Assembly (NCBI GenBank): GCA_046074645.1
Contig: JBJTOP010000227.1
Coordinates: 40,590 to 104,589, forward strand
Length of the DNA stretch: 64,000 nucleotides
Direction: 5' to 3'
Origin: Planctomycetaceae bacterium
GTDB lineage: Bacteria > Planctomycetota > Planctomycetia > Planctomycetales > Planctomycetaceae
The notes under the pieces were generated by a model. That model saw nothing but the letters and a program-made list of their open reading frames with translations. It had not been told where the DNA came from and did no database searches. Each line of letters starts with the position of its first letter. The first letter of the stretch is position 1. A program made the translations under genes and the position numbers. Of the stretch, positions 3,903 to 54,353 are shown piece after piece.

Positions 3903-5606
3903 TCAGGGCGCGGGTGCGGGTGCGGGCCTGGTGGCAGGGGGAAGCCCGGCGGCCTGCCGCAACTTCTGCAGTTCGTCTGCTTCCTTCACTCGCTTGTCTG
4001 CCGCGAAGAATTTGTCCACTGATTCTCTCATTTTTGTAATGAGCGATTCGATGCGGCGTTTAGCGGCGGCGTTACGAACGGCGTCGGCCTTTTGGAGTGC
4101 CGGGCTGCGGATGGCATCGAGTCGATCACTGAACTGCTGACGTGCGGGCAGAGCATCGATGCTGGTGACGGCGTTTTCGAATGCGGGCTTATCTCCGGCC
4201 GCCGAAGCCTTCTTCGCGATACTCATGTAGACAGCCTTTTCGGCAACCATATCGACGAGCTCATCGCGGAGCAGGTACAGGTCGCCTTCGACTCCGAGAC
4301 GAATGGAGTCATCGGGGAGCTTGACAGTTTCCCTGGGCATGACTCCCGGAGCATAGGGGATTCTTGCAAGGAGTGTCGAGCCACTGAAGGCGTAGAGCCA
4401 GAAAGTGGGTTTGGCGGGATCGACAGACAGTTGCAGTTCCCCGCTGCGATCAGTGAGGTGACGAACTCGCATTTCCGGTGGTGAATCGCGTTCCGGAACC
4501 TGATCGACACGGATGCAGACGAGCGGCCGATCGGGGCGGTCTCGCAGGACGAGTTTGACGCGGCTGGAGGAGGCCATCGGCCGCTGGCGAATGGCAATTT
4601 GCTGCAAGTTTCGACTTCCTTTGCCGCCATAGGGAACCGGACCGTGGGAGAGCAGAAGTCCGCGGACGCGAGCGGTATCGGTGTAGCTGGTGGAGGGTTC
4701 GGCAGCATCCGGCAGCGAGACGGGGGCGTCATCCTGGGAGAATCCTGCGGTGCCGAGAACGCGATTGAAATCGGTTATCTGAATGTAGCAGAGATCGAGC
4801 CGCTGGAGGATTTTGACTTTGCCTGGATTTTTGCGGTCCATTTGGCGAAGGAAGGTGCGGAGCACATCACCTTTGGCAATTTGAGCGGCCGAGGGGTCGG
4901 GTGGCAGGAGGTTGCCGGCCTGAAGGGTGAATTCGAGCTGTGATTTATCGATGGTAGGGCCGGAGAAGAGCAGGAGGGGGCGGAAGCAGTCGCGACCGAG
5001 TTCGCAGGCGGCATGAGCGACACTTTGGGAGGTGAACACGCTGCGTGAGAGGCTGGGAGAGAGTTCCTCGATGCGGGTGTCGTATTCGCGGCAGCTGACT
5101 GTGAATCCGGCCTGTCCACATTCGATGGAGACGAGCAGGAGTTTTTCGGTGGCGGCTTCCGGCCAGGTTTCGCGGAGATCGTTTTCGGTGAGTCGCTCCA
5201 GTTGGAGTTGAGTGCCGGGTCGGAACCATGCGGATTCACGAACCTGAGTGCGCCACATGCTGCCGTACATCCGCTGGAAGCCATCGCGGATTTGATCGAC
5301 GAGTTTGTATCGGAGATGTGGAGCGGCAGCGGCGGGGCCACTGAAGGCCACTTCGACGGCCACGCGGTAGGGACGATCCTGAAGGGGGATCACAGGTTCA
5401 GGTGTGGTCGCGGGTTGAGGTGAGCCGGCCGGAACTGCGGTGGGGGCGGGGGCGGGGGCGGGTGATGCGGGGGTGTTCTGAGCAGGTGCTCCCGAGGTTG
5501 CCGGCTGGGCAGTCGGGGGCGCGGGCGTATCCTGGGCTGCGGCGAAGGGCAGCACGGAGACGAACACCGGCAGGAGCATTGAGAGCAGGTTCCGTAGAAG
5601 TTTCAT
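3903..5606 (-). CDS. Secreted hypothetical protein with Pro/Ala/Thr-rich N- and C-terminal regions
   Basis: Signal-peptide-like N-terminus MKLLRNLLSMLLPVFVSVLPFAAAQ, followed by PAPPTAQPATSGAPAQNTPASPAPAPAP. The C-terminus ends ...ATRPAPAPAP. Its start overlaps the stop of the upstream gene by 4 bp (ATGA at 5603-5606), which suggests translational coupling. Confidence 0.6.
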   Translation of the reverse strand: MKLLRNLLSMLLPVFVSVLPFAAAQDTPAPPTAQPATSGAPAQNTPASPAPAPAPTAVPAGSPQPATTPEPVIPLQDRPYRVAVEVAFSGPAAAAPHLRYKLVDQIRDGFQRMYGSMWRTQVRESAWFRPGTQLQLERLTENDLRETWPEAATEKLLLVSIECGQAGFTVSCREYDTRIEELSPSLSRSVFTSQSVAHAACELGRDCFRPLLLFSGPTIDKSQLEFTLQAGNLLPPDPSAAQIAKGDVLRTFLRQMDRKNPGKVKILQRLDLCYIQITDFNRVLGTAGFSQDDAPVSLPDAAEPSTSYTDTARVRGLLLSHGPVPYGGKGSRNLQQIAIRQRPMASSSRVKLVLRDRPDRPLVCIRVDQVPERDSPPEMRVRHLTDRSGELQLSVDPAKPTFWLYAFSGSTLLARIPYAPGVMPRETVKLPDDSIRLGVEGDLYLLRDELVDMVAEKAVYMSIAKKASAAGDKPAFENAVTSIDALPARQQFSDRLDAIRSPALQKADAVRNAAAKRRIESLITKMRESVDKFFAADKRVKEADELQKLRQAAGLPPATRPAPAPAP

Positions 5607-11200: not shown

Positions 11201-11275
11201 GGCTTTCTGCTGGACGGCCTCCAGAGCTGCGTCGCTGGACGAGTCTTCCTGGCTGGGTTTAGAGGGGGTTACCAT
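8258..11275 (-). CDS. Membrane-anchored protein with a single N-terminal TM helix and a large beta-propeller-like (PQQ/BamB-like repeat) periplasmic region
   Basis: 1005 aa. TM segment VVLFLSGTTIVCLVLAAIFWFI. It is followed by a TPR-like helical stretch, then repeated motifs of hydrophobic strands followed by G/D turns (e.g. VFVPTDNQELW, LVLPGDQAMVY, LFVPSTPQRISAFRVGD), consistent with PQQ-type beta-propeller blades. Its start overlaps the kinase gene stop (11269-11275). Confidence 0.55.
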   Translation of the reverse strand: MVTPSKPSQEDSSSDAALEAVQQKARQQLKRGRMALLSDRLTGGPQRPGQQSITRSPVVLFLSGTTIVCLVLAAIFWFINQRNAESRMLKEAQTFLEQQKYLDAEARFTQFLKVYIKTESTPAARIGLHRTLVEKYIQTTTPDVIRGMTELRNLMSECGDLPGYNELTDTLRRYSDRLAYAGAIVAEQAASEDALRVSREAVELLRRFSGETGIPQSREEFLVDRQRIAEGAIARKQSFKATIEKITSQLAAGETVPALETRQALIDRFPSLSTDKDVTKMLADILNREKELVVRTDLGRDAPPIDPANSPLPAATLALRTQGRTDLTSQGRFIFTIGIDSCWAVDADTGDPRWRTVLGTEAPFEPIEVDGSEKGVLVYSTLSEELLLLSQATGQPLWRQSLESRPSAKPILIAGNVFVPTDNQELWQIAAVNGRALAKLAFPQTVIGPPAMTGDGQKLVLPGDQAMVYTLSLNPFACETVSHIPHRPDSVRVPMLAAGRYLLLCDNASSAKGRIQTLQTESDGRLSIVASNEVDGQILDPPLLRGYELFVPSTPQRISAFRVGDERGQPPLASIGANQLEEGLQTQMFLLAGPGGQLWLAGRDLRRFRTRTNSVELDSAVAAEGIHSQPIQVLDESAFLTTRSAQSDSTFFTRTDREQMLGIWRTVIGTRIIALAPSAGGNSVLALADYGEIYRLPAPDIAKGTFVIESVSRFRLPDKLASPIQGLVLADGRPAAWTGAPEPSLWTFTPTGQLERRWTLPDAPEVPPVAIAAGAVFASSGRLHLTAMAEGKTAEEYRASQNQTQQQPWKALVALNDTQVLALSAANDLVRVEYRPTPKPQLAEVGVTRLPQPVELSPTVAGNFLYAASTTGKLLVLQTATLELLAQQDLGGVASAPPKAAGNIVLAEIGGERAAIFRTENGLAPAGTIPLDGYSLVGNPFPVPDGFLVARSDGRIFKLNPDGSPSDKSLNLAQQLQAGFLKLGEQIIIPGLDGSLYSVKPDLQR

Positions 11276-12864
11276 TCGATGACCTTATTGCGGACGCGCG
11301 TGAAACCGGCCTGAGTGGCGGCATCAATCACGATGACTCGGGCTTCATGGTTGGAATCGGGATGGAGTTCCAGCTGGATGTCGGTGACGTCCGGGCTGGC
11401 GCTTTTTTCAGCTTTGAGGAGTTCGAGCAGTTCTCGGTAATTGGTGGCGCGTTTGGAGTCCTGCTCTTCGACGATCATGGTGTTGTCGGCGTCAACCTGA
11501 ACCTTCACGGCAGACTGTGACTCGTCCTGAACAACGACAGCAACGGAGACACCTTCGGTTTGTTTGGCTGGTGGGACGTCGAAGGCTTTCTGCATACTGA
11601 ATGAAGCGGTGACCATGAAGAAGATGAGCAGCTGGAAGGTCACATCGACGGCGGGTGTGAGGTCGATGGCGGCATTTTCCTGGGGGCGAGGGCGGCGTGG
11701 GGGTGGGTCGTCATCATCATCATTGTCGGCAGGGGCGACGGCGGCGGTCTGGAGCTGGAAGGGGGCGCGGGCGGAGCGGCGAGTTTCGGCGAGGTTAGCG
11801 GCTGCCATGGCTGCTGCCGAAGCGGGTTCGACGGAGTCTTCACCGAGGTCACGTTCGCTGGCGTCTGAGGCTTTGCCGGGCTTTTTGCGTTCCTGTTCAG
11901 ATTTGCGTTCGAGTTCTTCGAGACGGGGGAGACGAACGAGATCAAGAGAACGGCCCTGTTTGTGGGCAGCACTGAGGATGCGGATGTCTTCGAGGACTTC
12001 TTCGGCGGACTGATATCGCAGGGAGCGACGCTTGGCCATCATGCGGTGCACAAGCCGACAGACGATCTTCGGGAGTTCGGGATTTTTGTCTTCGAGTCTT
12101 GGGGGTGGATTATCGACGTGCTGAATGGCAATCTGGGCAGGTGTGGTGCCGCGAAAGGGAGTTTCTCCGCAGAGCAGCTGGTAGCAGGTGATGCCGAAGC
12201 TGTAGATATCGGAGCGAGGATCAAGTTCGCTCCCGTTTACCTGCTCGGGACTCATATATAGAGGTGTGCCCATGGTGACACCTCTCAGCCGGTCAGCGGA
12301 CTCACCCAGCTGGGCGAGCCCGAAGTCGGCGACTTTGATTTCACCCTTTTTATTGACGAGCAGATTTTCGGGTTTGATGTCCCGGTGCACGATTCCGGCC
12401 TGGCCGGAGGCTTTCAGAGCAGCCGCCACCTGTTTCATGACATGGAAGGCGGAGGTGAGATCGAGTTTGCCGCGTTCGCGGAGCAGGGTTGCCAGGTCCT
12501 GTCCCTGCACGAATTCCTGAGCGATGTAGTGATACTCGCCTTCCTGTCCGATTGTGTAGACCTGAACGATGTTGGGGTGATTCAGTCCCGCCGCCATCAT
12601 GGCTTCCTGGCGGAAACGTTTCAGCATGTCTTCACCGGAGAGGGCCATGAGTGAGGGTTTCATGACCTTGACGGCAACATATCGCTGCAGCGACGTCTGC
12701 TCGGCCAGAAACACTTCGGCCATACCGCCGCTTCCAAGCCTGCGAAGCAGGTGAAATTCGCCGAGCCGTTTGTCAGTCAGATCGCTCATGGAAGGGGCGT
12801 CAGGGGCTAGGGGCCAGGGTTTATTTTTCAGTGGTTCAGTGGTTGGTGTTGATGCGTGGATCAC
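11269..12864 (-). CDS. Ser/Thr protein kinase fused to a C-terminal ExbD/TolR (biopolymer transport) domain
   Basis: N-terminal Hanks-type kinase: GSGGMAEV (G-loop), VAVK (Lys), HRDIKPENLL (catalytic loop), DFGLA, and SPEQ (APE-like). It is followed by a Pro/Asp-rich linker DNDDDDDPPPRRPRP. The C-terminus AIDLTPAVDVTFQLLIFFMVTASF... is near-identical to the TM and start of the standalone ExbD at 12909..13361 (ITPMIDVTFQLLIFFMVTST). Confidence 0.8.
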   Translation of the reverse strand: MIHASTPTTEPLKNKPWPLAPDAPSMSDLTDKRLGEFHLLRRLGSGGMAEVFLAEQTSLQRYVAVKVMKPSLMALSGEDMLKRFRQEAMMAAGLNHPNIVQVYTIGQEGEYHYIAQEFVQGQDLATLLRERGKLDLTSAFHVMKQVAAALKASGQAGIVHRDIKPENLLVNKKGEIKVADFGLAQLGESADRLRGVTMGTPLYMSPEQVNGSELDPRSDIYSFGITCYQLLCGETPFRGTTPAQIAIQHVDNPPPRLEDKNPELPKIVCRLVHRMMAKRRSLRYQSAEEVLEDIRILSAAHKQGRSLDLVRLPRLEELERKSEQERKKPGKASDASERDLGEDSVEPASAAAMAAANLAETRRSARAPFQLQTAAVAPADNDDDDDPPPRRPRPQENAAIDLTPAVDVTFQLLIFFMVTASFSMQKAFDVPPAKQTEGVSVAVVVQDESQSAVKVQVDADNTMIVEEQDSKRATNYRELLELLKAEKSASPDVTDIQLELHPDSNHEARVIVIDAATQAGFTRVRNKVIEW

Positions 12865-12908
12865 GAGTCAGATGCAGACTGGCTGACCAGCTGTCCAGCT
12901 GACCGGCA

Positions 12909-13361
12909 TTATTCGCGGCGATCCTGGACGGCGTAGTGGAAACCGACATTTGGAATTTCGGAGATCATTGTTTCGAGTTCGCCGGTGAAGCGATTGGGGA
13001 CATCGCGGTCGCCCATGATCATGAGGTCGATGCCGTTGGGCCTGGTTGTGGATTCTTCGTTGAGGCGGATGCGAAGTTCTTCGATGGTGATGGGTTTCTT
13101 GTCGATTTCCATTACGGGATCGGTATTGGCATCGACGGGGGCTTTGATGACGAGTTTGAATGCGATTTTATTGAGTTCTGTGGAGCCACCGGAGACGGAG
13201 CGAGGGACGATAGCAGGGGGGTTGCCCTGCATTGTGGAGGTGACCATGAAGAAGATGAGCAGCTGGAAGGTGACGTCGATCATTGGCGTGATGTCGATTT
13301 CGGTGTCTTCCGATGGCCGTTTTTTCTTCTGGAACGGTGCGTCTTCTTCTTCGGCGCTCAT
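12909..13361 (-). CDS. exbD: ExbD/TolR family biopolymer transport protein
   Basis: 150 aa, ExbD-type topology: N-terminal TM helix ITPMIDVTFQLLIFFMVT followed by a periplasmic domain, a typical ExbD/TolR signature. Confidence 0.8.
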   Translation of the reverse strand: MSAEEEDAPFQKKKRPSEDTEIDITPMIDVTFQLLIFFMVTSTMQGNPPAIVPRSVSGGSTELNKIAFKLVIKAPVDANTDPVMEIDKKPITIEELRIRLNEESTTRPNGIDLMIMGDRDVPNRFTGELETMISEIPNVGFHYAVQDRRE

Positions 13362-13425
13362 CGTCCGCTGGCTCCGGGGACGTCAGGATTGAGGGGGACG
13401 GGACAGGAATGGGGGAGAAACTGGA

Positions 13426-14142
13426 TCAGCGGGGAGCCTTCGCGGTGGCGAGTTCGTCGAGGAAAGCGCCGGTACCTTCATCGATGCGTTCCTGGAGCTT
13501 TTTCATGCTGTTGGAGGCGGCTCCCTGCATGACGATGAGGGGAATGGAGATGGCCATTCCGGCGGCGGTGGTCCAGAGGGCAAAGCTGATGTCGGCGGAG
13601 AGTTCCTTGGGATCGACGCCGGTGGCTGCGGCGCCGGCGATTTTGGCGAACGCGTTGATCATCCCGAGAACTGTACCGAGCAGTCCCAGCTGGGGTGCGG
13701 TTTTGATGCTGGTCCCGACCCATGAGTTGAGTCGATCGAGGTTGGAGAGGATATCACGTTCGAATCGTTCACCGACAATCTGACGAATTTTTTTCATGGG
13801 TTCTTCGCGGGCCTGCAGAGCCAGCATGGCCAGTTGCGGAAGGGCCATATTCCAGATGGAGGGATTATCACAAACCTTGATGGCACCATCGAAGTCACGA
13901 CGTTCGAGACAATCTCCGAGTTCGTTGAGGAAGGCCTGTTCGGCCGCATCACCGGGGAATTGTTTTTGTTTGATGCGTCGCATGAGCAGGATGCCGGTCC
14001 ACATGCCACCGGCGGCGCAGATTGCGATGCCGCCCCAGATGGAGTTTTCGATCACCTTCATGAAGGTGGAGGGACCAGCAGCAGGTGCAGCTTCCTGTGC
14101 GAGCAGAGTGATGGAATTCAGAAAACTGAATATGCTCATCAT
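13426..14142 (-). CDS. exbB: MotA/TolQ/ExbB proton channel family protein
   Basis: 238 aa with three TM regions. The conserved C-terminal motifs TAPQLGLLGTVLGMINAF and ALWTTAAGMAISIPLIV are typical of ExbB/TolQ. Confidence 0.85.
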   Translation of the reverse strand: MMSIFSFLNSITLLAQEAAPAAGPSTFMKVIENSIWGGIAICAAGGMWTGILLMRRIKQKQFPGDAAEQAFLNELGDCLERRDFDGAIKVCDNPSIWNMALPQLAMLALQAREEPMKKIRQIVGERFERDILSNLDRLNSWVGTSIKTAPQLGLLGTVLGMINAFAKIAGAAATGVDPKELSADISFALWTTAAGMAISIPLIVMQGAASNSMKKLQERIDEGTGAFLDELATAKAPR

Positions 14143-14205: not shown

Positions 14206-15120
14206 TTATTTGAGAACCTGGCGAGTGACGACAAATTCGAAGCCGCTGCCTGCTCGGCGGACCTGAAAATAGGTTCGGCGAATGGCAGACGCCTGCTGGT
14301 TGCCGTAGGCGAATTCGAGCTGAGCCAGCATCTGTTCGGTGGCTGGCGGGTAGAAGTGCAGAATCAGGCCGGAGCTGCCATCGAGGCCCGCGCGTTTGAA
14401 GAGTTCGAGGTCGGCTTTGATGCGTTCCTGACTGCCGTCCTGCCACGCGAGGAACAGGCGTTTTTCAGCATCACCGGTGCGAACTTCGCGGCGGGTTGGC
14501 TGGGGCTGAGAGAAGTTGCTGAGGTAGATGAGGCGGGATTCTTCCTTGAGCATCAGTCCGAGTTCGATGCCGAAGAAATCGAGCTGGGCAGCATAGGTGT
14601 CGATGTCGCCTTTTTCGGCGAATTCGACAATCCAGCCCTGTTCTCGTTTAGCACCGCCACGACCCGGCCCTCCGGAACCGAGCGGACGTCCACCGGTCCC
14701 ATCAGCACTGCCGGGGATCCCGGAGTTTTCTCGTTGGGTGTTTTCGTTGGGGGCTTCGATGACCGCGGCATTTTCAGCCACCTCGACCACCTGTTCGATG
14801 ACTTCTTCGATTTCCGTCACGTCGGTTTCCTCGTTTGCCATCGAGGGATCGGGGACGGCGTCTTCGGGGGATTCGACGTTGGGGGTGGCGTCCGGGGTGC
14901 CATCTTCCCAGCCTCCGTCACCGGCTGGCATGAGTTCGACTTTTTTGGAAATCGGTGTGGGCAGCAGATTGGACAGCCAGATGGCGAGCATCACCATGAA
15001 GGCGAGCCCTGCGATCAGAGCGGAGGTCTGCATCACAGACACGGCGATGTCGTATCGTGTGAGCTTGATATGGGGGCCGGCCGGGCGACTGCGTTTGCCA
15101 GCGGGATGCGCAACAGACAT
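14206..15120 (-). CDS. Membrane-anchored hypothetical protein (acidic linker plus C-terminal globular domain), first gene of the ExbB/ExbD operon
   Basis: Start assigned to MSVAHPAG (ATG at 15120), which is preceded by AGAGG about 7 nt upstream on the minus strand. The longer ORF runs to 15177. TM helix ALIAGLAFMVMLAIWLSNLL, followed by an E/P/D-rich segment. It might be a TonB-like transducer, but no recognisable TonB C-terminal domain is seen. Confidence 0.5.
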   Translation of the reverse strand: MSVAHPAGKRSRPAGPHIKLTRYDIAVSVMQTSALIAGLAFMVMLAIWLSNLLPTPISKKVELMPAGDGGWEDGTPDATPNVESPEDAVPDPSMANEETDVTEIEEVIEQVVEVAENAAVIEAPNENTQRENSGIPGSADGTGGRPLGSGGPGRGGAKREQGWIVEFAEKGDIDTYAAQLDFFGIELGLMLKEESRLIYLSNFSQPQPTRREVRTGDAEKRLFLAWQDGSQERIKADLELFKRAGLDGSSGLILHFYPPATEQMLAQLEFAYGNQQASAIRRTYFQVRRAGSGFEFVVTRQVLK

Positions 15121-21381: not shown

Positions 21382-23199
21382 TTAGTGTGAGGGATTGAGC
21401 GAGAACATCAGGACGGCGATGTCGGCAGGCGTAATGCCGCTGACACGACTGGCCTGACCGACGGTGGCGGGCCGGTGTCGGCCGAGTTTTTCGCGGGCTT
21501 CCATGCGAAGCTGGGTGACGGATCGATAGTCAAAAGTCTCAGGAATCCGGATGGAGTCTACTTTCCGGAGTCGAGCAATTTCGGCTTCCTGTCGGCGGAC
21601 ATAGCCGGCGTACTGGGCCTCGATCTGCATTTGTCGTCTGGCAGCGGCGGAAAGTTCCAGTTCGCCAATCGCGGGGAACACGGCCAGCAGTTCGTCCCAT
21701 GGGGGCAGTCGGCGCATCCATTCTTCGAGGCTGGCCCCCTGTGAGCGGAGAGTTTTCATGGCGTGGAAGCCGCGTTCGAGTTCTGATTGATAGGCGAGGA
21801 ACCTGGCTTTGCGTTCGGCGGAGACGGTTCCGAGTTCGATGCCGAGAGGCGTGAGTCGGCGATCTGCGTTGTCGTGTCGCAGGAGCAATCGATATTCGGC
21901 GCGGGATGTGAACATGCGATAAGGTTCATCGACACCTTTTGTGACGAGGTCATCGATGAGGACACCGAGGTAGGCCTGGCTGCGGTCGAGCACAAAAGGT
22001 GGTTTTCCCTGCAGTTTTCGAGCGGCATTGATACCGGCGATGAGTCCCTGTCCGGCAGCTTCTTCGTAGCCGGTGGTGCCGTTAATCTGGCCGGCAAAAT
22101 ACAGTCCCTGTACGAGTCGAGTTTCGAGGGTGGCATGAAGTTGGGTGGGTGGTGCGAAGTCGTATTCGACGGCGTAGCCATAGCGCATGATGTGCGCATT
22201 CTCGCAGCCGGGTATCCTGCGAATGATCTGATCCTGGACGTCCCGCGGGAGACTGGTGGAGATGCCGTTGCAGTAGACTTCCTGGGTATTTCGGCCTTCG
22301 GGTTCCAGAAAGATCTGGTGTGTTTGTTTTTCTGCGAAGCGAACGACTTTGTCTTCGATGGAGGGGCAGTATCTCGGGCCGGTGGACTGGATCTGGCCGG
22401 AATACATGGGTGCCCGGTGCAGATTTGCGCGGATGATATCGTGAATTTCAGGAGTTGTGGATGTGAGATAGCAGTGGATCTGTGGCTGGCTGATGTGATC
22501 GGTCAGAAAGGAGAAGGGTTCGGGTTCGGGATCACCGGGCTGAGGTTCGCAGCGTGAAAAATCGATGGTACGCCCATTGAGTCGCGCGGGGGTGCCGGTC
22601 TTGAAGCGGCGAAGTTCGAAGCCGAGGTTGCGAAGTGAAGCGGACATTCCGTGAGCGGCTTTGTCACCGGCGCGGCCACCTTCGGCCTGCTGTTCGCCGG
22701 TATGCATGACTGCTTTCAGAAAAGTGCCGGTGGTAAGGATCACAGCGTGGGTTCGATAGAGGGCATTGCCGGCCACACGAATCCCGGTGACGCGGCCGGC
22801 TTCAGTTTCGAGTGAATCGACGGTTTCCTGGCAGAGTGTGAGTCCGGGCTGTTGTTCGATCCGATGCTTCATCTCGAATTGATAGGCTTTTTTGTCAGCC
22901 TGAGCGCGGGGGCTGTGCATGGCGGCCCCTTTGCTGGAATTGAGCATTCGGAAGTGAATTCCGGCAGCATCGATGACACGGCCCATTTCTCCGCCGAGGG
23001 CATCAATTTCGCGGACAATTTGTCCCTTGGCCACCCCGCCAATAGCGGGATTGCAGCTCATTTGAGCGACGGTATCGCAGTTCATCGTGAGCAGTGCCGT
23101 GCGGGCACCGATGCGAGCGGCGGCGAGCGCGGCTTCGACACCGGCATGGCCGGCACCGACCACCACGACGTCGTAATCATAAATGCAGGATGGAGACAT
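21382..23199 (-). CDS. mnmG: tRNA uridine-5-carboxymethylaminomethyl modification enzyme MnmG (GidA)
   Basis: FAD-binding N-terminus YDVVVVGAGHAGVEAALAAARIGA and conserved MnmG core (GQINGTTGYEEAAGQGLIAGINA). The start is set at the internal MSPSCIYDYD (ATG 23199); the ORF track extends to 23271. Confidence 0.9.
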   Translation of the reverse strand: MSPSCIYDYDVVVVGAGHAGVEAALAAARIGARTALLTMNCDTVAQMSCNPAIGGVAKGQIVREIDALGGEMGRVIDAAGIHFRMLNSSKGAAMHSPRAQADKKAYQFEMKHRIEQQPGLTLCQETVDSLETEAGRVTGIRVAGNALYRTHAVILTTGTFLKAVMHTGEQQAEGGRAGDKAAHGMSASLRNLGFELRRFKTGTPARLNGRTIDFSRCEPQPGDPEPEPFSFLTDHISQPQIHCYLTSTTPEIHDIIRANLHRAPMYSGQIQSTGPRYCPSIEDKVVRFAEKQTHQIFLEPEGRNTQEVYCNGISTSLPRDVQDQIIRRIPGCENAHIMRYGYAVEYDFAPPTQLHATLETRLVQGLYFAGQINGTTGYEEAAGQGLIAGINAARKLQGKPPFVLDRSQAYLGVLIDDLVTKGVDEPYRMFTSRAEYRLLLRHDNADRRLTPLGIELGTVSAERKARFLAYQSELERGFHAMKTLRSQGASLEEWMRRLPPWDELLAVFPAIGELELSAAARRQMQIEAQYAGYVRRQEAEIARLRKVDSIRIPETFDYRSVTQLRMEAREKLGRHRPATVGQASRVSGITPADIAVLMFSLNPSH

Positions 23200-23610
23200 G
23201 TGATTGACTGAATGAGCTTGAAAATGACAGGAAGCGGCGGAATTGATGCGAAAACGCAGCAATTCATGCACGGAAAGGCAGCAAAGCCTGCAGGAATGAG
23301 CAGAGGTACGAGGTTATCAGCATTCGCAGTGGCTCCATTCTGCACGCATTTCTGTACCGATCAAGCTGAACCCTGGCTTTTCGCAGCACAGTCCCGATGG
23401 TGCGAGGTGGTGACGCGGGAGTTGGTTTCGAGGTGGCCGCATGGGTGAATGTGACAATGCGGGCGCAGTTGAAATCTGGCGTTTTCTGCCCGTTCCGGGA
23501 AGTGTGAGTCGCTGTTTGGTGCCGTCTGCGGTGGGTGTTCGGCAGCGTGTGCCGAAGTGATTTGGAGCTGAAAAAAACGGGAGAATTTTGAGTTTTTGTC
23601 AGATCGTGGC

Positions 23611-23648: not shown

Positions 23649-23786
23649 TGTAATCGCCGTCGAACCGCGCCGTCAGCGTGGCTCAACACGCGGCGGCAGA
23701 CGGCTTCGATCACAACGTTCAAATCATGGATGAACGCCTGGCGGGTCATTCGACCCCGAACGGCATTCCTGAAGGAGGATCCTCAA

Positions 23787-26700
23787 TTGCACAAGGCCAT
23801 CGGACTCATCACGTGCGCTTCGGTGATGGCCGTGTCGCTGTATTTGTTCAGCGGCGGCGATCCGTCACGAACGCTATCAGCCCAGACCGAACCCGGTGAC
23901 GGGTACGGCTCTGTGGCCCGACAGTTCCTTCAGGATGCTCGGGAACAGGCGCGGCAGGGAAATCCGGAGGAGGCTCGGCGGCTTGCCGAAACGGCGGCCT
24001 CAATGTCCTCCGACTGGGGTTCTGCAGAGGAATCTCCAAAGCAGTTCCTCGCCGCACTCGACAACCCGAAGAAGGGACAACCAACAGAACTGAATTTCCC
24101 GGACACGTGGAGCAGCAAATCTCCGAAACCAGGTCCGGCGAAAGCCCAGGCTTCGGCGAAGGAGAAGGCCGCAGCGAAGGTGGAAGTTCCCGAAGACGCT
24201 GCCGACTTCATGGCGGATCTTGATGAAGTTGCCACCGAGGCGGCTGGCACTGAGAAGGCCGCTGGTGGGGACATGGTCAAGCGCCGGGAAGCTCAGCGTC
24301 TGGTTCGTGAAGCCCGCGCCGCGATGAAATCCGGCGACTTCGCCACCGCCCGCTCCCGCGCCCTGCAGGCTCGGCAGCTGAAGGCTTCGTGGCAGTTGTG
24401 GGATGATCGTCCCGAGCACGTGCTCGCTGACCTCGATGCCCGCGAGAAGTCTGAGACATTTATCGCGGATGCCGGCAAACCAATTAAACAGGCTGCCGAA
24501 AAAGTTCGTCAGGCCGACCAGAAGACAGTGGAGGCCGCTGAGAAGCTGAAGAAGGCTCGCGCCGCCATGGACGCGGGTGATCTTGAAGGTGCGGCAGCAC
24601 TCGCCGGCCAGGCAGATAAGCTCAACGCCGCCTGGGCAATGTTTGAAGACAGCCCATCGCTCGTGCAACGCGATATTCGCCGTTTGCAGCAGGCCGGTGC
24701 TGCTGCAGAGGAGACGTTTGCTGCCATGGAGGAGACGGCAGAGTCCGAGGCCGATGAGGCTCGCATTCTGCTCCGCGAAGCCCGTGATGCCATGGCTCAG
24801 GGACTCGTCGACGAAGCTCGGGAAAAAGCTCAGGCTGCTGCTGAGCTGAATGTTGCCTGGAATGTCACCGATGACCGTCCGGAACTGGTGATGGAGGAAA
24901 TTGAAGCTGGCAGCAGCAGCCGCAGTTCGGCTGTCGCTCGCGGAGAACCGTCGGAAGCTGCCCGTGACCTGCTCGCTCAGGCCCGCCAGGCTCTTGCCGC
25001 CGGTGACCATCAAACCGCAGCCAGCCTCGCTGAAGAAGCTCAGACAGAAGATGCCGCCTGGGATCTGCTCGACGATCGCCCGGAACTTGTGATCGAAGAA
25101 GCCCGGATCATGGCTCAAAACGAATCCGGTCCCCGCGGTCGCCGCGGGACACGCGTCGCTCGAGCTGCCGTGGAAGAGCCTGCATTCGCAGCCATATCTC
25201 CAGATGGATCCTCCGCTTCGGAATCGTATCGCCACGGCATCGCACTGATGCGTCGCGGTGATCGAGCGGGTGCGAAAGCATCCTTCCAGGCGGCGTGGAA
25301 GAATGCCGGTGAACTGAGTGCGATTGAGCGCCAGCAGCTGCATGACTTCCTTCAGGAACTTGCAACGCCCCGGTCCGTTCGGCTCGCCAGTGGCTCGACT
25401 GCTGATGAAGCGGAACCAATGATCGAGGCCGCCGAAGGTCAGGACGCAGAAGTCGCTGCTGACCGTGACGTGCTCGCAGACGCCGCCCAGCGGTCTGATG
25501 TGCAGTACGACCGTCTGCGGACGGAAGTCATGAACAGCGTCTTCCGCGCAGAGAAGATGAAGACATCCAACCCGGATGAAGCTCTGCAGATCCTTGACAA
25601 CACACTCGCCACCGTCGAAGCCGCTCCACTTGAAAAAGAATCCCTCGAAACCCTCGCCGGCTACGTTCGACGCAGCCAGACGACCATCCGTGAGTATCGT
25701 GAGCAGCTGGCACCGAACATCGAGCGAGCTGAACGCAATCGCAATGTGATGGAAGAGATTCGCCGGGAAACAGAAACCAAAATCCGGATCGAACAGGAAT
25801 TCGCTGAGCTGGTGGATCAGTACAATCAGCTGATGAAGGAACGTCGCTACGCAGAAGCTCAGCTCATCGCCCGCAAGGCGAAGGATCTGAATCCGGATCT
25901 GCCGGAAGCCACGATCATGGTTGAGAAGGCGAAGCTGCAGAAGCAGATTGCCTTCAATGAAGACATTAAGGAACGCAAGGCTGACAGCTTCCTTGAGCAG
26001 CTGAATGATGTCGAAGAAGCCATTATCGCACCGGGTCGCGACTATGCCATGCCCGACGCTCGATCATGGGAAGAGCTGAAGAAACGTCGTGAGCGATTCG
26101 GTCGAGTCGATAGTCGCGACCGTTCTGAAAGCGAACTGCAGATTGAAAAGAGCCTCGGCGAGAAAGTCTCGCTGCACTTCCACGACATGCCGCTGACTGA
26201 CGTCATTCGCCAGATTGCCGTTGACCATGGCATCAACATCACCATGAAAACTCGGGCCATCGAAACGGAAGGCCTCTCAGTCACTCAGCCTGTGAGCATT
26301 GATGTTGATGGCATCACGCTCCGCAGCGCCCTGAATCTGCTCCTTGAACAGGCCGGCGGACTGGTTTACTCCATCGAGAACGAAACGCTGATGATCACCA
26401 ATCGGCTTGAGCAGGAAACCAAATTCGTCAACGTTGCCTACAACGTGGCGGACCTTGTGATCCCTGTCGGCAATGGCAATGCAGCTTCGATGTCTCAGCT
26501 TGGTGGCCTCGCGCCGCAGGCCAACGCTCCTCAGCCGAATGGCAACGGTCTGTATCAGGTCAACGATGACCTCGCGGTCTCCATCAGTGGCAATGGACGT
26601 ACCGGCTCCGGTGGCTCCACCGGCAGCAAGGTTAACTCTGCCGCAGACTTTTCCGGCCTGGTCAATCTGATCACAACAACGGTCGAGCCCGGCTCATGGG

Positions 26701-28088
26701 ATGTCGATGGTGGTCAGGGCACGATCGGCCAGGAAGAAAACACGCTCAGCCTTGTGATTCGCCAGACAACGTCTGTTCACGAACAGATCGTGGACCTGCT
26801 TACGCAGCTTCGCAAACTGCAGGACCTGCAGGTCACTGTTGAAGTTCGCTTCATCAGCGTGTCTGACCGATTCTTCGAACGCATCGGTGTGGACTTTGAC
26901 TGGAATGTCAATGACACCCTCGGCGATCCTCCGGGCGTACCCGCCTTCGGCTCCCGTCAGCTCCAGTTCCCAGGTGGTGGTGGACAGGGTGGCGGTGGTG
27001 GTGGTGGCAACAACCAGGGTGGTGACCTTCGCGGTAACCAGCAGGGTCAGGGCGGTGGCGGTCAGCAGGGCCAGCAGGCTCAGCAGGGCGGTCAGAGGCT
27101 GTTTGACCCGATTAACCGCGTGAACTCCCCACGCGATGACTTTAACAGCACGGTCGTCGGGATGTCCGGTCCCAACCAGTTCACCCAGGACTACGATGTT
27201 CAGTTCCGCCAGGGCTCCTTCGAAATCGGTGTGCCCGACTTCGGCGGTTTCCAGCCCAACGCTGGTATTCAGGTCGGCATGGCCATTCTGAGCGACATCG
27301 AAGCCTTCTTCTTCATCCAGGCCGCTCAGGGTGATTCCCGGTCGAACATCCTGTTCGCTCCGAAAGTCACGATGTACAACGGTCAGACAGCGTCGATCTC
27401 CGACTTCACTCAGCGATACCTCGTCGTGGGCCAGGTTCCAAACATCGCTCCGGGTGCCGTTGGCTTCTCACCTCTCGTTCAGCCCTTCCCGGACGGTATC
27501 TTCCTGTTCGTGAACGGCGTGGTCTCCGCGGACCGTCGCTATGTGCGTCTGTCCATGTCACCTTCGTTCATGAACATCATTGACGTGCAGACCTTCACCA
27601 ACGTCAACGCCGGCGGTGCTGGTATCGGCGGTGGTGGCGGTGGTGGGTTGGGTGGTGGCGGCTTCGGTGGCGGTGGTGGTGCCGGTGGCGGCTTTGGCGG
27701 TCTCGGTGGCATCGGCGGCGGCTTCGGTGGCGGCGGTGGCGGTGGCGGTGGCTTCGGTGGTGGAGGCGGTGGTGGCGGCGGTCAGCAGGGACAGCAAGGT
27801 GGCGGGCAGTCCGGCACCGTTCAGCTGCCTGTGATCGCTCAGATCTCCGTCAGCACAGTCGTGAGCGTTCCTGACGGCGGCACAGTGCTCCTTGGCGGTA
27901 TCAAACGACTCCGCGAAGGTCGCAAGATGGCCGGCGTGCCGATCCTGAACAAGATTCCCTACATCAGCCGACTCTTCAAGAACAGCGGTGTTGGTCGTGA
28001 AACGGAAAGCATCATGCTTATGGTCACGCCCCGCATCATCATTCAGGAAGAAGAAGAAGAACTGATCATCGGAACCGCTGCTGAATAA
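23787..28088 (+). CDS. Giant secretin (GspD/PilQ-type outer-membrane channel) with long N-terminal repeat region and Gly-rich low-complexity inserts
   Basis: C-terminal secretin domain (VLLGGIKRLREGRKMAGVPILNKIPYISRLFKNSGVGRETESIMLMVTPRII) and secretin N-domains (ITLRSALNLLLEQAGGLVYSIENETLMITN). Start proposed at TTG 23787, 7 nt after a perfect AGGAGG (23774-23779); the ORF track begins at 23730. Hydrophobic signal-like segment AIGLITCASVMAVSLYLF. Confidence 0.85.
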   Translation: MHKAIGLITCASVMAVSLYLFSGGDPSRTLSAQTEPGDGYGSVARQFLQDAREQARQGNPEEARRLAETAASMSSDWGSAEESPKQFLAALDNPKKGQPTELNFPDTWSSKSPKPGPAKAQASAKEKAAAKVEVPEDAADFMADLDEVATEAAGTEKAAGGDMVKRREAQRLVREARAAMKSGDFATARSRALQARQLKASWQLWDDRPEHVLADLDAREKSETFIADAGKPIKQAAEKVRQADQKTVEAAEKLKKARAAMDAGDLEGAAALAGQADKLNAAWAMFEDSPSLVQRDIRRLQQAGAAAEETFAAMEETAESEADEARILLREARDAMAQGLVDEAREKAQAAAELNVAWNVTDDRPELVMEEIEAGSSSRSSAVARGEPSEAARDLLAQARQALAAGDHQTAASLAEEAQTEDAAWDLLDDRPELVIEEARIMAQNESGPRGRRGTRVARAAVEEPAFAAISPDGSSASESYRHGIALMRRGDRAGAKASFQAAWKNAGELSAIERQQLHDFLQELATPRSVRLASGSTADEAEPMIEAAEGQDAEVAADRDVLADAAQRSDVQYDRLRTEVMNSVFRAEKMKTSNPDEALQILDNTLATVEAAPLEKESLETLAGYVRRSQTTIREYREQLAPNIERAERNRNVMEEIRRETETKIRIEQEFAELVDQYNQLMKERRYAEAQLIARKAKDLNPDLPEATIMVEKAKLQKQIAFNEDIKERKADSFLEQLNDVEEAIIAPGRDYAMPDARSWEELKKRRERFGRVDSRDRSESELQIEKSLGEKVSLHFHDMPLTDVIRQIAVDHGINITMKTRAIETEGLSVTQPVSIDVDGITLRSALNLLLEQAGGLVYSIENETLMITNRLEQETKFVNVAYNVADLVIPVGNGNAASMSQLGGLAPQANAPQPNGNGLYQVNDDLAVSISGNGRTGSGGSTGSKVNSAADFSGLVNLITTTVEPGSWDVDGGQGTIGQEENTLSLVIRQTTSVHEQIVDLLTQLRKLQDLQVTVEVRFISVSDRFFERIGVDFDWNVNDTLGDPPGVPAFGSRQLQFPGGGGQGGGGGGGNNQGGDLRGNQQGQGGGGQQGQQAQQGGQRLFDPINRVNSPRDDFNSTVVGMSGPNQFTQDYDVQFRQGSFEIGVPDFGGFQPNAGIQVGMAILSDIEAFFFIQAAQGDSRSNILFAPKVTMYNGQTASISDFTQRYLVVGQVPNIAPGAVGFSPLVQPFPDGIFLFVNGVVSADRRYVRLSMSPSFMNIIDVQTFTNVNAGGAGIGGGGGGGLGGGGFGGGGGAGGGFGGLGGIGGGFGGGGGGGGGFGGGGGGGGGQQGQQGGGQSGTVQLPVIAQISVSTVVSVPDGGTVLLGGIKRLREGRKMAGVPILNKIPYISRLFKNSGVGRETESIMLMVTPRIIIQEEEEELIIGTAAE
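27611..27808 (+). repeat. Intragenic (GGY)n simple-sequence tract encoding poly-Gly (GGGGFGGGGG...) inside the secretin gene; a second tract lies at about 26977..27090
   Basis: Runs of ggtggcgg/ggcggtgg triplets are seen directly in the sequence. Confidence 0.6.
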
Positions 28089-34513: not shown

Positions 34514-35947
34514 TTATTTGATGACCTCTTCAAGCTGTGTTGGAGCGGCAATCAGGGTTCGTTGATGCTCCGCCACGGCACTGCGGATCTGTTCGAGCAC
34601 CGCGGGGTGCTGAGCCGCCATGTTCCATTTCTCCCCCGGATCCACTCGCAGTTCAAACAGCAGCGGCGGGTCATGAGCATCAGGTTTGGGAGCGCCGTAG
34701 CCGGGACGCGTCAGGAAGTGCGCTTTCCATGGACCAAGTCGGCAGGCGTAGAGTGTGCTCCCGCGATAATACATGAACGCACCGCGATCAACTTTCCCGG
34801 TACCAAACATCAGAGGCGTGATATCCGTGCCGTCCAGTTGTGTTTCAGGAATCGCTGTTCCGGTGATGGCTGCAATGGTGGGCAACAAGTCCATGGTCAG
34901 CCCCATTTCGTGCTGCACGCGTCCGGTGGGAATTTTTCCCGGCCACCACATGAGTCCTGGCACACGCATGCCGCCCTCCCACGTGGAACCTTTGCCGTCC
35001 CTGAGCATTCCTGCGGAACCGCCATGGGAATCAAAGATCAGCCACGGACCGTTATCACTGCTGAAGACCACCAGCGTCTGCTCGGCAAGCCCTTCATCTC
35101 GGAGCGTCTGCAGGATCTGCCCGACACTCCAGTCCAGTTCCTCGACAACATCCCCATAAATGCCGGCTGGACTTCTGCCACGAAACTGCTCGGAGGCAAA
35201 CAGCGGCACATGCGGAAAGTTGTGGGCCATGTAAAGAAAAAAGGGCTTTGATTTGCTGGATTTGATGAAGGAGGTTGCTTCATCGGTGTAACGTTTCGTC
35301 AGTTGCCTCTGGTCCGGCCGCTCCTCGACGATTTCGTTCCCCCGGATCAGCTGCGTCTGCCAGAACTCCGTCTGCTCCGCAAAAAACTTCGCACGATCCT
35401 TCGGTGCATCCGGAGCCGGACGCATGTCGTTGGAATACGGCATGCCGAAATAGCTGTCAAATCCATGCTGGAGTGGCAGATGTTCGGGCAAATGCCCCAG
35501 ATGCCACTTGCCGACGATTGCTGTGGCGTAGCCAGCCGTTTTCAGCATCTCAGCGATGGTGACTTCATTCGCCGGCAGGCCACCTTTAGAGTTATTGCGG
35601 AGCACGCGAAACTGGTCATGACACATCCCACTGCGAATCGGGTATCGCCCTGTCAGCAGTGCAGTGCGGCTTGGCGTACACACTTCGGCCGCGGAATAAA
35701 ATTCCGTAAACCGCATGCCCTCTGCGGCCATCCGATCCAAATACGGCGTTCGAATCGAAGGATGCCCGTAACATCCCAGATCACCGTAACCCAGATCATC
35801 AGCATAGATTATCACCACATTCGGCCGCTCTGCTGCCGGCAGCGAGCTGACGCATGCGGCGATCAGTGCACAGGTCAGCAGAACCGAGATTCCAGAGCTG
35901 AATGTCCGGGAGAGCATGTGAGCCGCTTTCGTAAATGGAGATTTCAT
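34514..35947 (-). CDS. Arylsulfatase A-family sulfatase
   Basis: Sulfatase signature CTPSRTALLTGRYPIRSGM (C/S-x-P-x-R, fGly site) and N-terminal DDLGYGDLGCYGH, plus a signal peptide. The start is either MKSPF (35947) or MLSRTF (35917). Confidence 0.85.
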   Translation of the reverse strand: MKSPFTKAAHMLSRTFSSGISVLLTCALIAACVSSLPAAERPNVVIIYADDLGYGDLGCYGHPSIRTPYLDRMAAEGMRFTEFYSAAEVCTPSRTALLTGRYPIRSGMCHDQFRVLRNNSKGGLPANEVTIAEMLKTAGYATAIVGKWHLGHLPEHLPLQHGFDSYFGMPYSNDMRPAPDAPKDRAKFFAEQTEFWQTQLIRGNEIVEERPDQRQLTKRYTDEATSFIKSSKSKPFFLYMAHNFPHVPLFASEQFRGRSPAGIYGDVVEELDWSVGQILQTLRDEGLAEQTLVVFSSDNGPWLIFDSHGGSAGMLRDGKGSTWEGGMRVPGLMWWPGKIPTGRVQHEMGLTMDLLPTIAAITGTAIPETQLDGTDITPLMFGTGKVDRGAFMYYRGSTLYACRLGPWKAHFLTRPGYGAPKPDAHDPPLLFELRVDPGEKWNMAAQHPAVLEQIRSAVAEHQRTLIAAPTQLEEVIK

Positions 35948-49958: not shown

Positions 49959-50250
49959 GGCGGTGCTTTCGGCAGGCGTGGGCCGGAGGGTGCCGGAACG
50001 GGGATTGAGGGCAGCCGAAATTCTACTCTTTTGAGCGTCCCAGGCAAATGCGAATGCCTGTCCCGGACTGGGAATCATCGGATGTTCCCTGAGTTCCAAA
50101 ATACAGGATCTGCAGATCCTTTTCCCGGTTTCATTTGAGTTTGCTCTGCTGACACCTTCAAATACGGACCCACCAGCCAGTGCGGTGCATTTACCGTCGA
50201 AAGACCTCACGCACGCATTCCCGCCCCTGCCCCAGATTCGGACGCCTTCC

Positions 50251-52959: not shown

Positions 52960-53589
52960 TCACGGAAGCGACGTCAGCCGCTCTACGGACAGCACTTCAT
53001 GGAAGAACCACGGTTTGCCTGCCATCTTTTTCCAGATAGCGGTCTGCGATGGAAAACCGGTTCCGTCGACTTCGCGCCACTCACTGAAGCGGTAGATGTC
53101 GTCACGCCAGTCGATGCGGATAAGGCGAAAAGTCTGAGAGTCAAAGTGCAGGTCCATTGCGGGAGTCACGGTACCTGAAGCACGAACAGCCTGCGTGGTT
53201 GCCCCGGATTCCTGAACGCCGGGGATTTTTTGCAGCTGTGTGGCGGGGTCGTTAAGCAATCCCAGAGTCCAGGCCCAGACCACAAATTTTGCCGGTTCTG
53301 CTCCACGTTCTTTGCCTTCCACCGTCCAGATTTTCGGGGGCTGCAGGATGGAGTTGCGTGACTGAGATTTTGTTGAGGGTGCTTTTTCGGCGCCAGCATT
53401 GTAACGCTCGACCATTTTGAAGGTCGTGAGCAGCTTTTCGCGGCCACCGGCAGCCGCATTGACAGACTGTACCAGTTGTTTTGTGTCATCGCTGCCGGGT
53501 GTTCCGTTGCTGGTTTCCTGGGCAGCAGCAAACGGCGTCAGAACACAGATGCCAATGGCAATAAAGAAACAGTGATGGACTGCAATCAT
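52960..53589 (-). CDS. Secreted hypothetical protein
   Basis: Signal peptide MIAVHHCFFIAIGICVLTPFAAAQ. No recognised domain. Its start overlaps the stop of the HEPN gene by 4 bp. Confidence 0.5.
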   Translation of the reverse strand: MIAVHHCFFIAIGICVLTPFAAAQETSNGTPGSDDTKQLVQSVNAAAGGREKLLTTFKMVERYNAGAEKAPSTKSQSRNSILQPPKIWTVEGKERGAEPAKFVVWAWTLGLLNDPATQLQKIPGVQESGATTQAVRASGTVTPAMDLHFDSQTFRLIRIDWRDDIYRFSEWREVDGTGFPSQTAIWKKMAGKPWFFHEVLSVERLTSLP

Positions 53590-54353
53590 GCGGGGCCGCC
53601 AGCTCGAAAGGGGGGTGGGACAACGACTTCGTCGGCAGGTCGGACGGCGCGGGCGACAGAGTCGCCAGCGAGTTCCGGAGCTTTAAGCTGGATCTGAACA
53701 GAAGGTTCGCAGTAGGGGCAACTGGCGGTGTAAATGATACAGCCGCAGTTTGAGCATTCGCGGGGGCCGTGCTGATGCAGGGATTCCCGGGTGACCTGCC
53801 ACCATGCAATTCGCATGAGTGCGAGGAACACCAGAAAGGCCATCAACCATGACCATGGAGCGTGGCCAAATGCGATGATTGCGGTATCGAGTGCGATACC
53901 GCTGGCTCCGCAGAGCAGAAAAGGCCAGAGTTTTCCGAAGAAATCAGGTGCTTCGGGAGGACCGATTTCGTCGCGCCAGAGTCGTCCGAGTGATTCGCGA
54001 CGGAGTCGAGCGGCACGCTGAGCGGCGGGACTGCCAACGGCCACCAGGAGTCTTTCGATGCCGTCGGTGATGCGGTAAACATCGTTTTCGTGGATGTGCT
54101 GCTGATGAGCCCAGCGGTTGCGGTATTCGCGAAGTTCACTCACGAGACTGCGTTCGACGAAGCTGAGTTGGAAGCGGAAGACGTCGTTCCAGTGATCCCA
54201 CATGAAAACGAGGAGCGACTGGGCGTCCCACGACTGAATATCGGTGCGTGTCTGTTGATTTTCGGCCAGCAGTTCATCCGTAACGCAGCGAGCCACATAC
54301 GGCCTGAGGCCGATGGCAAGAACATCGAGTGCGTTGGAGACGGGATCGATCAC
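53586..54353 (-). CDS. Swt1-like HEPN domain protein with C-terminal TM hairpin and zinc-ribbon
   Basis: WDHWNDVFRFQLSFVERSLVSELREYRNRWAHQQHIHENDVYRITDGIERLL: the Rx4H HEPN motif (RNRWAH) in the conserved Swt1-HEPN context. It is followed by two TM helices and CSNCGCIIYTASCPYCE. Confidence 0.6.
   Translation of the reverse strand: MIDPVSNALDVLAIGLRPYVARCVTDELLAENQQTRTDIQSWDAQSLLVFMWDHWNDVFRFQLSFVERSLVSELREYRNRWAHQQHIHENDVYRITDGIERLLVAVGSPAAQRAARLRRESLGRLWRDEIGPPEAPDFFGKLWPFLLCGASGIALDTAIIAFGHAPWSWLMAFLVFLALMRIAWWQVTRESLHQHGPRECSNCGCIIYTASCPYCEPSVQIQLKAPELAGDSVARAVRPADEVVVPPPFRAGGPA

Follow-up and report, generated by a model that had tools for sequence, protein, structure and literature searches.

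What does a protein kinase do at the cytoplasmic end of a proton-driven motor subunit? The question is raised by a 64,000-nucleotide stretch of DNA from a Planctomycetaceae bacterium (contig JBJTOP010000227.1 of assembly GCA_046074645.1, positions 40,590 to 104,589; hereafter the window, in whose own numbering coordinates are given), which carries a single gene for a Ser/Thr kinase joined to an ExbD/TolR domain. Motors of the 5:2 type (MotAB, ExbBD, TolQR, GldLM and ZorAB) deliver mechanical work outward, and a 5:2-motor pore subunit with an enzyme at its cytoplasmic end is not known, nor did the searchable literature offer one. We find that the fusion is real, that it forms part of a conserved seven-gene envelope operon and that its ExbD domain belongs to an old paralogue, here called ExbD2, which is distinct from the adjacent standalone ExbD (ExbD1). 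On balance, and with modest confidence, we favour the explanation that the fusion as a whole serves as a stator subunit to which a signalling module is tethered, with signals passing from the outside in.

The longest open reading frame (ORF) at this position runs from 11269 to 12864 on the minus strand and encodes 531 amino acids (aa), with the GTG at 12864 as its start in the ORF listing. A first-pass annotation of the DNA had read it as a kinase and an ExbD in one protein, and both parts are real: Pfam Pkinase (PF00069) matches residues 37-291 of the 531-aa ORF at E 7.6e-53 over profile positions 1-258 of 263 (180 bits against a curated cut-off of 31.7), and Pfam ExbD (PF02472) matches residues 395-524 at E 2.2e-18 over profile positions 3-121 of 128 (67 bits against 25.4). 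Because a length of about 506 aa recurs in more than 100 homologues, which cover 95% of the query, the start is most likely the ATG at 12789 (MSDLTDK...), which would give a protein of 506 aa, rather than the GTG at 12864. The annotation had also raised the possibility that an assembly frameshift joined two separate genes, and this we discount almost entirely. The two Pfam domains share a single protein of about 456-521 aa in all 120 of the best-matching clusters at 90% identity (there are at least 120 of them, from the independent JGI, NCBI, ENA and Logan assemblies), length is conserved, the junction between kinase and ExbD can be aligned over 127 family sequences, and the same single ORF is present in 11 further loci (L001-L009, L081 and L085).

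The fusion product is a bitopic inner-membrane protein composed of a kinase, a flexible linker, a pore helix and a periplasmic ExbD domain. In the numbering of the 506-aa protein, the kinase carries a GSGGMA Gly-rich loop at residues 19-24, the catalytic Lys41, the αC Glu62, HRD at 135-137, DFG at 155-157 and SPE at 180-182, together with activation-loop threonines at positions 172 and 175. No catalytic motif is missing, and conservation of these residues across the 127 aligned family members is 98% or higher. The linker that follows begins with about 25 conserved residues and continues through a variable middle to an acidic patch, DNDDDDD, and then PPPRRPRP just before the membrane; the acidic, Pro-rich sequence singled out in the first-pass annotation, DNDDDDDPPPRRPRP, lies here, at residues 380-394 of the 531-aa ORF. 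The only hydrophobic segment of the protein (residues 375-399 of 506) is N-terminal to the ExbD domain. Since ExbD proteins are oriented N-in and there is this one hydrophobic segment, the kinase is placed in the cytoplasm and the globular ExbD domain in the periplasm, which bears out the topology proposed at first pass. Within the segment lies the pore Asp, D382 of the 506-aa protein and D407 of the 531-aa ORF, in the motif ...TPAVDVTF... / DLTPAVDVTFQLLIFFM; it is essentially invariant and, like its flanking residues, at least 98% conserved across the 127 sequences. In alignments with the E. coli proteins D382 corresponds to the proton-relay Asp (D25 of ExbD, D23 of TolR).

Each half of the protein has familiar counterparts from which the whole departs. 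With ExbD, TolR and MotB of the 5:2 motors (ExbB5-ExbD2, TolQ5-TolR2 and MotA5-MotB2) the fusion shares a Pfam ExbD match, one N-in pore helix with its essential Asp, a periplasmic domain and an ExbB/TolQ-family neighbour, but those subunits have about 20 cytoplasmic residues where the fusion has an N-terminus of about 380 aa containing a kinase. The fused domain scores 25 bits on the ExbD equivalog NF008429, whose cut-off is 216. On the kinase side, the closest solved structures are PknA, StkP and PknB (E ~1e-51 to 1e-48), which likewise combine a cytoplasmic kinase having activation-loop Thr, a juxtamembrane linker, a single transmembrane (TM) helix and an extracytoplasmic domain. PknB and StkP differ in carrying PASTA domains outside where the fusion has ExbD, and the TM helix of the fusion is of the motor-pore kind, bearing a charged Asp. 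The fusion has no PASTA domain and scores 333 bits on NCBIfam PknB_PASTA_kin (NF033483), below the cut-off of 450.

The fusion gene lies in an ExbB/ExbD operon, as the first-pass annotation had it, with MotA_ExbB and ExbD Pfam matches on its neighbours (Table 1). The operon encodes, in order on the minus strand, the protein p323, ExbB, ExbD1, the ExbD2 fusion, a TM-anchored PQQ β-propeller protein, an SBP_bac_5-like protein and p567. Its genes are separated by gaps of 6-120 nucleotides or overlap by 4-7, the start of the propeller gene overlapping the stop of the fusion gene by 7 nucleotides, and we consider the seven genes one transcription unit because of the 4- and 7-nucleotide overlaps and the short gaps; a promoter and terminator scan of the operon gave counts at chance level and was not used to set its boundaries. 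All seven products are predicted envelope proteins, five of them TM-anchored and two with a signal sequence or N-terminal anchor. ExbD1 has a cytoplasmic N-terminus of 22 aa. The protein p323 consists of an N-terminal TM anchor, a disordered but conserved linker of about 100 aa rich in Gly, Pro and acidic residues, and a C-terminal α/β domain of no assigned fold, and its topology is TonB/TolA-like. The propeller protein has a cytoplasmic tail of about 55 aa, a TM helix at residues 53-81, a helical region and one or more PQQ-like β-propellers. In p567 a signal peptide and a Pro-rich spacer precede α/β and β domains, modelled as TolB-N-terminal/FlgT/PelC-like folds, and a C-terminal helical bundle; a sequence search of solved structures gave nothing significant for p567 or for the SBP-like protein.

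Table 1. The fusion gene, the parts of its product and the other genes of the operon, in window coordinates.
Feature	Coordinates	Strand	Basis or remark
Kinase::ExbD2 fusion gene	11269..12789	-	likely true coding sequence, 506 aa; ORF calls, Pfam, homologue lengths
Hanks-type (PknB-like) Ser/Thr kinase domain	11992..12756	-	Pfam Pkinase E 7.6e-53; solved relatives; motifs
Low-complexity cytoplasmic linker, ~100 aa	11683..11991	-	conservation profile, composition
Single TM/pore helix IDLTPAVDVTFQLLIFFMVTASFSM with conserved Asp	11593..11667	-	hydropathy, conservation
ExbD/TolR domain, ExbD2 type (pore helix and periplasmic domain)	11293..11682	-	Pfam ExbD E 2.2e-18; ExbD2 clade 198/200
ExbD1, short standalone ExbD/TolR paralogue, 150 aa	12909..13361	-	Pfam ExbD E 4.2e-15; ExbD1 clade 184/200
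ExbB/TolQ/MotA-family proton-channel subunit, 238 aa	13426..14142	-	Pfam MotA_ExbB E 3.6e-20
p323, first operon gene	14206..15120/15177	-	likely 304 aa from ATG at 15120
TM-anchored PQQ-like β-propeller protein, 1005 aa	8258..11275	-	Pfam PQQ_2 E 5.5e-14; syntenic
Exported or anchored SBP_bac_5 (solute-binding protein family 5) protein, 882 aa	5603..8251	-	Pfam E 1.3e-14, residues 399-776; syntenic
p567, secreted 567-aa protein, last conserved operon gene	3903..5606	-	signal peptide; 4-nucleotide overlap with preceding gene

This arrangement is not peculiar to the window. Among nine fusion-bearing loci from Planctomycetaceae, 'Planctomyces sp.' and Fuerstiella sp. metagenome-assembled genomes (MAGs; L001-L009), the seven-gene order is retained in eight, at protein identities of 33-96%, and the ninth, L008, is cut off downstream. 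It is retained also in L081, and L085 keeps it except for a hybrid histidine kinase in the place of p567. The flanking genes (ptsI and a GT2 glycosyltransferase) are kept only in close relatives, and an ExbB-family neighbour gene is syntenic in all related loci, as befits the partner of an ExbD/TolR subunit. A kinase-less version of the operon, with a zinc-ribbon or otherwise long ExbD2, occurs in L080, L082, L083 and L084 (L082 and L080 are partial); L083 and L084 encode in turn p303, ExbB, an ExbD of 165 aa, an ExbD2 of 208 aa with a zinc ribbon, a PQQ protein of 1174 aa, an SBP_bac_5 protein and, last, a protein of 483 aa. All seven proteins of the window operon match their positional counterparts in this kinase-less operon. 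The tails that p323, the propeller protein and ExbB have in the cytoplasm contain motifs that were considered as kinase-specific substrates and rejected, since operons without a kinase conserve them to the same degree.

Several observations on these loci stand on their own. The p323 linker (residues 59-157; gene at 14206-15120) is predicted to be disordered yet is unusually conserved among proteins that are 50% identical overall, with the invariant runs GDGGWEDG, VESPED..DPS and GSADGTGGRPLGSGGPGRGG, which suggests a binding or structural role rather than that of a passive spacer. In L085 (GCA_027622115.1), a third kinase-ExbD lineage, positions 11737-13806 encode the hybrid histidine kinase, with GAF, HATPase_c and receiver domains, and a separate HisKA kinase is encoded upstream; this gene content is a hint of connections between the system and additional signalling proteins. 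One contig (L001, CAZLOQ010000016.1) carries the complete operon, its proteins 85-95% identical to those of the window, and was deposited as a MAG of 'uncultured Chitinophaga sp.'; it is probably mis-binned, since all other relatives are Planctomycetota.

In a BLASTP comparison, fusion residues 382-498 aligned with ExbD1 residues 4-115; the 119 alignment columns are 39% identical (E 3e-14), a similarity well above chance. The C-terminal domain is a bona fide ExbD and a paralogue of its neighbour, as had been claimed at first pass. The accompanying description of the two as 'nearly identical' holds for the pore helix, where 16 of 24 residues agree, and does not extend to the domain as a whole, for which identity over the trimmed alignment is 27%. 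The scenario built upon it was a tandem duplication followed by fusion to a kinase. Taken as a recent local event, in which the adjacent exbD was duplicated and the copy then fused, such a history would fit the adjoining position of the two genes, the helix and BLASTP identities just given and a Gln that both helices share in the window's lineage where most relatives have Leu. The phylogeny contradicts it. In a neighbour-joining tree with 200 bootstraps the neighbour-type ExbD1 proteins form one clade (184/200), while the fused domains join the kinase-less long ExbD2 proteins in a second (198/200); kinase-less operons already hold both an ExbD1 and a long ExbD2; and the fused domain of the window has a mean identity of 36.8% to kinase-less ExbD2s against 26.9% to its own neighbour. 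A recent duplication is therefore very improbable. The separate clades, and the kinase-less operons that already carry the pair, indicate that the duplication is old, older than the arrival of the kinase.

The likeness of the two pore helices reflects conservation of the helix and not recency, because the same 13-16 of 24 identities are found in every related locus examined, including the kinase-less L080. Paralogue-specific helix signatures (DITPMIDV...MVTSTMQ versus DLTPMVDV...MITASFS) are conserved in all loci, as would be expected if both subunits were needed, for example in a heterodimer. The ExbD1 and ExbD2 subtrees mirror one another, which indicates co-inheritance. One position of the pore helix (window 11593-11667 and 13245-13300) co-varies between the paralogues: it is Gln in the two proteins of the window, L001, L002 and L004 and Leu in the two of L003, L005, L006, L009, L080 and L081, and L007 is mixed. 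Such co-variation is compatible with helices that pack against each other or with gene conversion.

The kinase is rare among the N-terminal extensions of ExbD2. We searched the fused ExbD domain alone against 1.84 billion representatives and recovered 1295 proteins at E<=0.001, of which the best 150 (representatives at 50% identity) serve for the statistics that follow. At least 50 aa precede the pore helix in 95% of the complete proteins, with a median of 110; the stretch of 25 residues that leads up to the pore-helix motif is acidic (median net charge -5); a CxxC...CxxC zinc-ribbon motif is present in 74 of the 108 long complete ExbD2s; and only 3 of the 150 carry a kinase. The kinase-less ExbD2s (L083, L082, L080; P0127-P0270) occupy the same position in the same operon, belong to the same clade and have an acidic stretch before the pore helix, and they differ from the fusion in bearing the zinc ribbon instead of a kinase. 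It follows from these comparisons that the kinase was added to, or replaced, a long N-terminal extension that ExbD2 already possessed. It stands in the place of the zinc ribbon in one or a few Planctomycetaceae lineages, namely that of the window together with L081 and L085. In the kinase tree the window-type fused kinases are monophyletic (100/100), and all fused kinases jointly, with L081 and L085/P0392, group in 47/100 replicates; the fused ExbD domains form one group in 0/200 replicates of the ExbD tree. The nearest relatives of the kinase domain, at about 50-57% identity, are kinase-plus-TPR-like membrane Ser/Thr kinases (STKs) of Planctopirus, Schlesneria, Gimesia, Planctomicrobium and Maioricimonas, whose genes do not lie beside ExbB genes.

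That ancestry lends some colour to the idea that the ExbD part has been co-opted as the anchor or periplasmic sensor of an ordinary receptor kinase, in the way that other STKs use PASTA or PQQ domains, and no longer works in an ExbB motor. The nearest kinase-only relatives, at about 55% identity, are membrane STKs with other C-terminal parts, and planctomycete STKs combine with more than 100 accessory domains (PMC11032199). Such a role is nevertheless hard to reconcile with a pore helix and Asp conserved at 98% or more, with an ExbD2-specific signature common to the kinase-less orthologues, with the co-inheritance seen in the mirrored trees and with the invariable position of the fusion gene in the ExbB-ExbD1 operon (12 of 12 kinase-carrying loci: the window, L001-L009, L081 and L085, L008 being cut off downstream). 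We consider it improbable.

To which known class of machine does the operon belong? It combines a motor with an anchored protein that has a long linker, with a propeller and with a TolB-N-like protein, a design that is Tol/Ton-like, yet it is neither a canonical Ton nor a canonical Tol-Pal system. The ExbB protein scores 33 bits on the ExbB equivalog TIGR02797 (cut-off 206) and 48 bits on NCBIfam tolQ (cut-off 221), and the NCBIfam tolR model, whose cut-off is 127, gives 39 and 29 bits. The operon encodes no TonB protein, as recognised by an SHLS/His TM motif or TonB_C, and no TonB-dependent receptor. With the Tol-Pal system (TolQ-TolR-TolA-TolB-Pal-CpoB) it shares the motor, the TM-anchored long-linker protein, a periplasmic β-propeller, a TolB-N-like fold and a compact single operon. 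It differs from that system in having no Pal/OmpA-like protein, no CpoB and no sequence match to TolA or TolB; whereas TolB unites an N-domain and a propeller in one periplasmic protein, the propeller here is PQQ-type, TM-anchored and on a separate protein, and an SBP_bac_5-like protein and a second TolR-like subunit are added.

Tandem arrangements of two ExbD genes are known elsewhere. In the Xanthomonas campestris tonB-exbB-exbD1-exbD2 cluster and in clusters of Flavobacterium psychrophilum, two heterologous ExbD genes likewise follow exbB, but these are bona fide TonB systems, likened to the planctomycete pair by arrangement, and their ExbD2 proteins are short and not known to carry a cytoplasmic domain. 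The second exbD of X. campestris is dispensable for iron uptake and has been implicated in trans-envelope signalling (PMC3551730). Closer in lineage are motor operons described from Planctomycetes and Verrucomicrobia, which, like the present one, combine two distinct TolR-like genes with a candidate transducer other than TonB; kinases are not mentioned there (PMC12204202). No vWA domain was detected by Pfam in any protein of the window operon.

A role in anti-phage defence, either as a Zorya-like module of MotAB type or through a PD-T4-6/PglW-like kinase, is another way to read a kinase beside a motor. The kinase domain does score strongly on the PADLOC PD-T4-6 and mad6 kinase models, and the NCBIfam MADS6 and PglW models also match it, far below their cut-offs. 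These matches are confined to the generic kinase fold, PADLOC finds nothing in ExbB, in either ExbD domain or in the other four proteins, and the operon is vertically inherited, with mirrored trees, among housekeeping genes. We accordingly think a defence module very unlikely.

How, then, might the fusion work as a stator subunit with a signalling module? The ExbD2 helix, probably with that of ExbD1, would insert in the ExbB pentamer of a 5:2 proton-driven motor, and the motor would energise a Tol/Ton-like periplasmic apparatus comprising the propeller, the SBP-like protein, p567 and p323. The N-terminal chain of ExbD2 would exit through the cytoplasmic mouth of ExbB and so keep the kinase at the motor; an ExbD1:ExbD2 heterodimer would let one long N-terminal chain leave by that mouth, and the acidic patch beside the helix may interact with the ExbB vestibule. 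The load or engagement state of the ExbD2 periplasmic domain and pore helix, or else proton flux, could then alter the proximity or orientation of the kinase and thereby promote activation-loop autophosphorylation on Thr172/Thr175, after which the kinase would phosphorylate cytoplasmic targets, possibly the tails of the system's own membrane proteins. A coupling of motor state to phosphorylation, which the first-pass annotation had put forward, remains a plausible hypothesis. We favour the outside-in direction because the orthologous position otherwise holds a non-enzymatic binding module, and because the second ExbD of the Xanthomonas tandem has been tied to trans-envelope signalling rather than to transport (PMC3551730).

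Several points weigh against this explanation. Entry of ExbD2 into the ExbB pore and the ExbD1:ExbD2 heterodimer are both steps that we infer. A folded kinase of 30 kDa must stay outside the cytoplasmic funnel of ExbB, through which the chain would have to thread. No FHA domain, PP2C phosphatase or other obvious phospho-partner was found with Pfam in the operon or elsewhere in the window (about 45 ORFs), and operons that lack the kinase preserve the conserved juxtamembrane Thr/Ser of p323 and the propeller protein's tail motif just as well. For the apparatus that the motor is supposed to drive, the TM helix of p323 lacks an SHLS/His motif and no TonB/TolA fold is detectable in its C-terminal domain. 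Signals may also flow the other way, from a kinase that regulates the motor, and this is a serious rival.

In that opposite arrangement the kinase would be a regulatory input: it would sense cytoplasmic cues and phosphorylate motor parts, such as the ExbB loop, the fusion's own linker or the p323 and propeller-protein tails, and so turn the assembly or activity of the machine on and off, and it would make no report of motor state. From its tether the kinase could reach the cytoplasmic side of five membrane proteins from the same operon, the long Ser/Thr-containing linker could serve as an autophosphorylation and docking site, and the solved kinases closest to it, those of the PknB/StkP type, control machines of the envelope and of division by phosphorylating membrane components of these. 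Against this, Pfam identifies in the fusion protein no sensor domain for cytoplasmic cues, and the candidate target motifs in the p323 and propeller tails are just as conserved where ExbD2 has a zinc ribbon. We regard a regulatory input as possible though rather unlikely.

Returning to outside-in signalling by a stator subunit, a broader proposal can be framed tentatively around it. The planctomycete Tol-Pal machinery has been reported to be largely reduced (PMC8871954). The operon might be a Planctomycetaceae-wide proton-driven machine that replaces this reduced Tol-Pal/Ton machinery, with an obligate ExbD1:ExbD2 heterodimer as stator and the ExbD2 N-terminus as a trans-envelope signalling port, formed by a zinc ribbon in most lineages and by a Hanks kinase in some. 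The kinase form would then be the first case of a direct read-out, as protein phosphorylation, of the mechanical or protonation state of a rotary 5:2 motor. We put this forward as a possibility on the unlikely side.

The fusion is not new to databases, but it is biologically unexplored, within an uncharacterised and widespread planctomycete operon. Public annotation already displays it, some members bearing the JGI name 'serine/threonine protein kinase/biopolymer transport protein ExbD'. Supplementary table S7 of a survey of planctomycete STKs includes a single ExbD/TolR accessory domain, on which the main text is silent (PMC11032199), and by column count the one ExbD-bearing STK of that table belongs to Symmachiella dynata. 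That table entry is the sole trace of a Pkinase-ExbD fusion in the searchable literature, where we found no paper discussing one and no other paper linking ExbD with a kinase or a zinc-ribbon extension. With a cultured candidate carrier in S. dynata, genetics looks feasible. With its kinase tethered to ExbD, the fusion would let motor state be read out, or controlled, directly in biochemical terms, so that the coupling of proton flow, periplasmic engagement and cytoplasmic signalling would become testable by phospho-specific assays. It also draws attention to an envelope system that is conserved yet uncharacterised in Planctomycetes, whose cell-envelope biology is still debated.

A few features of the window lie apart from the operon or embrace it only in passing. 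On the plus strand, all genes between 1505 and 23271 show a GC skew of +0.11 to +0.32 regardless of the direction in which they lie, and the skew falls abruptly to about 0 from 23730 on, with mnmG/gidA (21382..23271) adjoining the switch; the change near 23700 could be a replication-related boundary or a compositional or assembly junction. Just beyond it, 23730-28088 on the plus strand encodes a 1452-aa protein whose sole Pfam match is a secretin domain at the C-terminal end (residues 1360-1437), with no Pfam domain in the roughly 1350 residues ahead of it. On the minus strand, 53586..54353 encodes a protein with a Swt1-like HEPN domain (E 8.6e-25), whose gene overlaps by 4 nucleotides an unassigned 209-aa ORF at 52960..53589; lying beside an ECF sigma factor gene, the two possibly form a toxin/antitoxin-like or defence pair. 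Gene content typical of planctomycetes, which supports placing the window in Planctomycetota, is also present on the minus strand in the form of a DUF1501 protein (48483-50270, E 4.6e-142) and a sulfatase (34514-35947).

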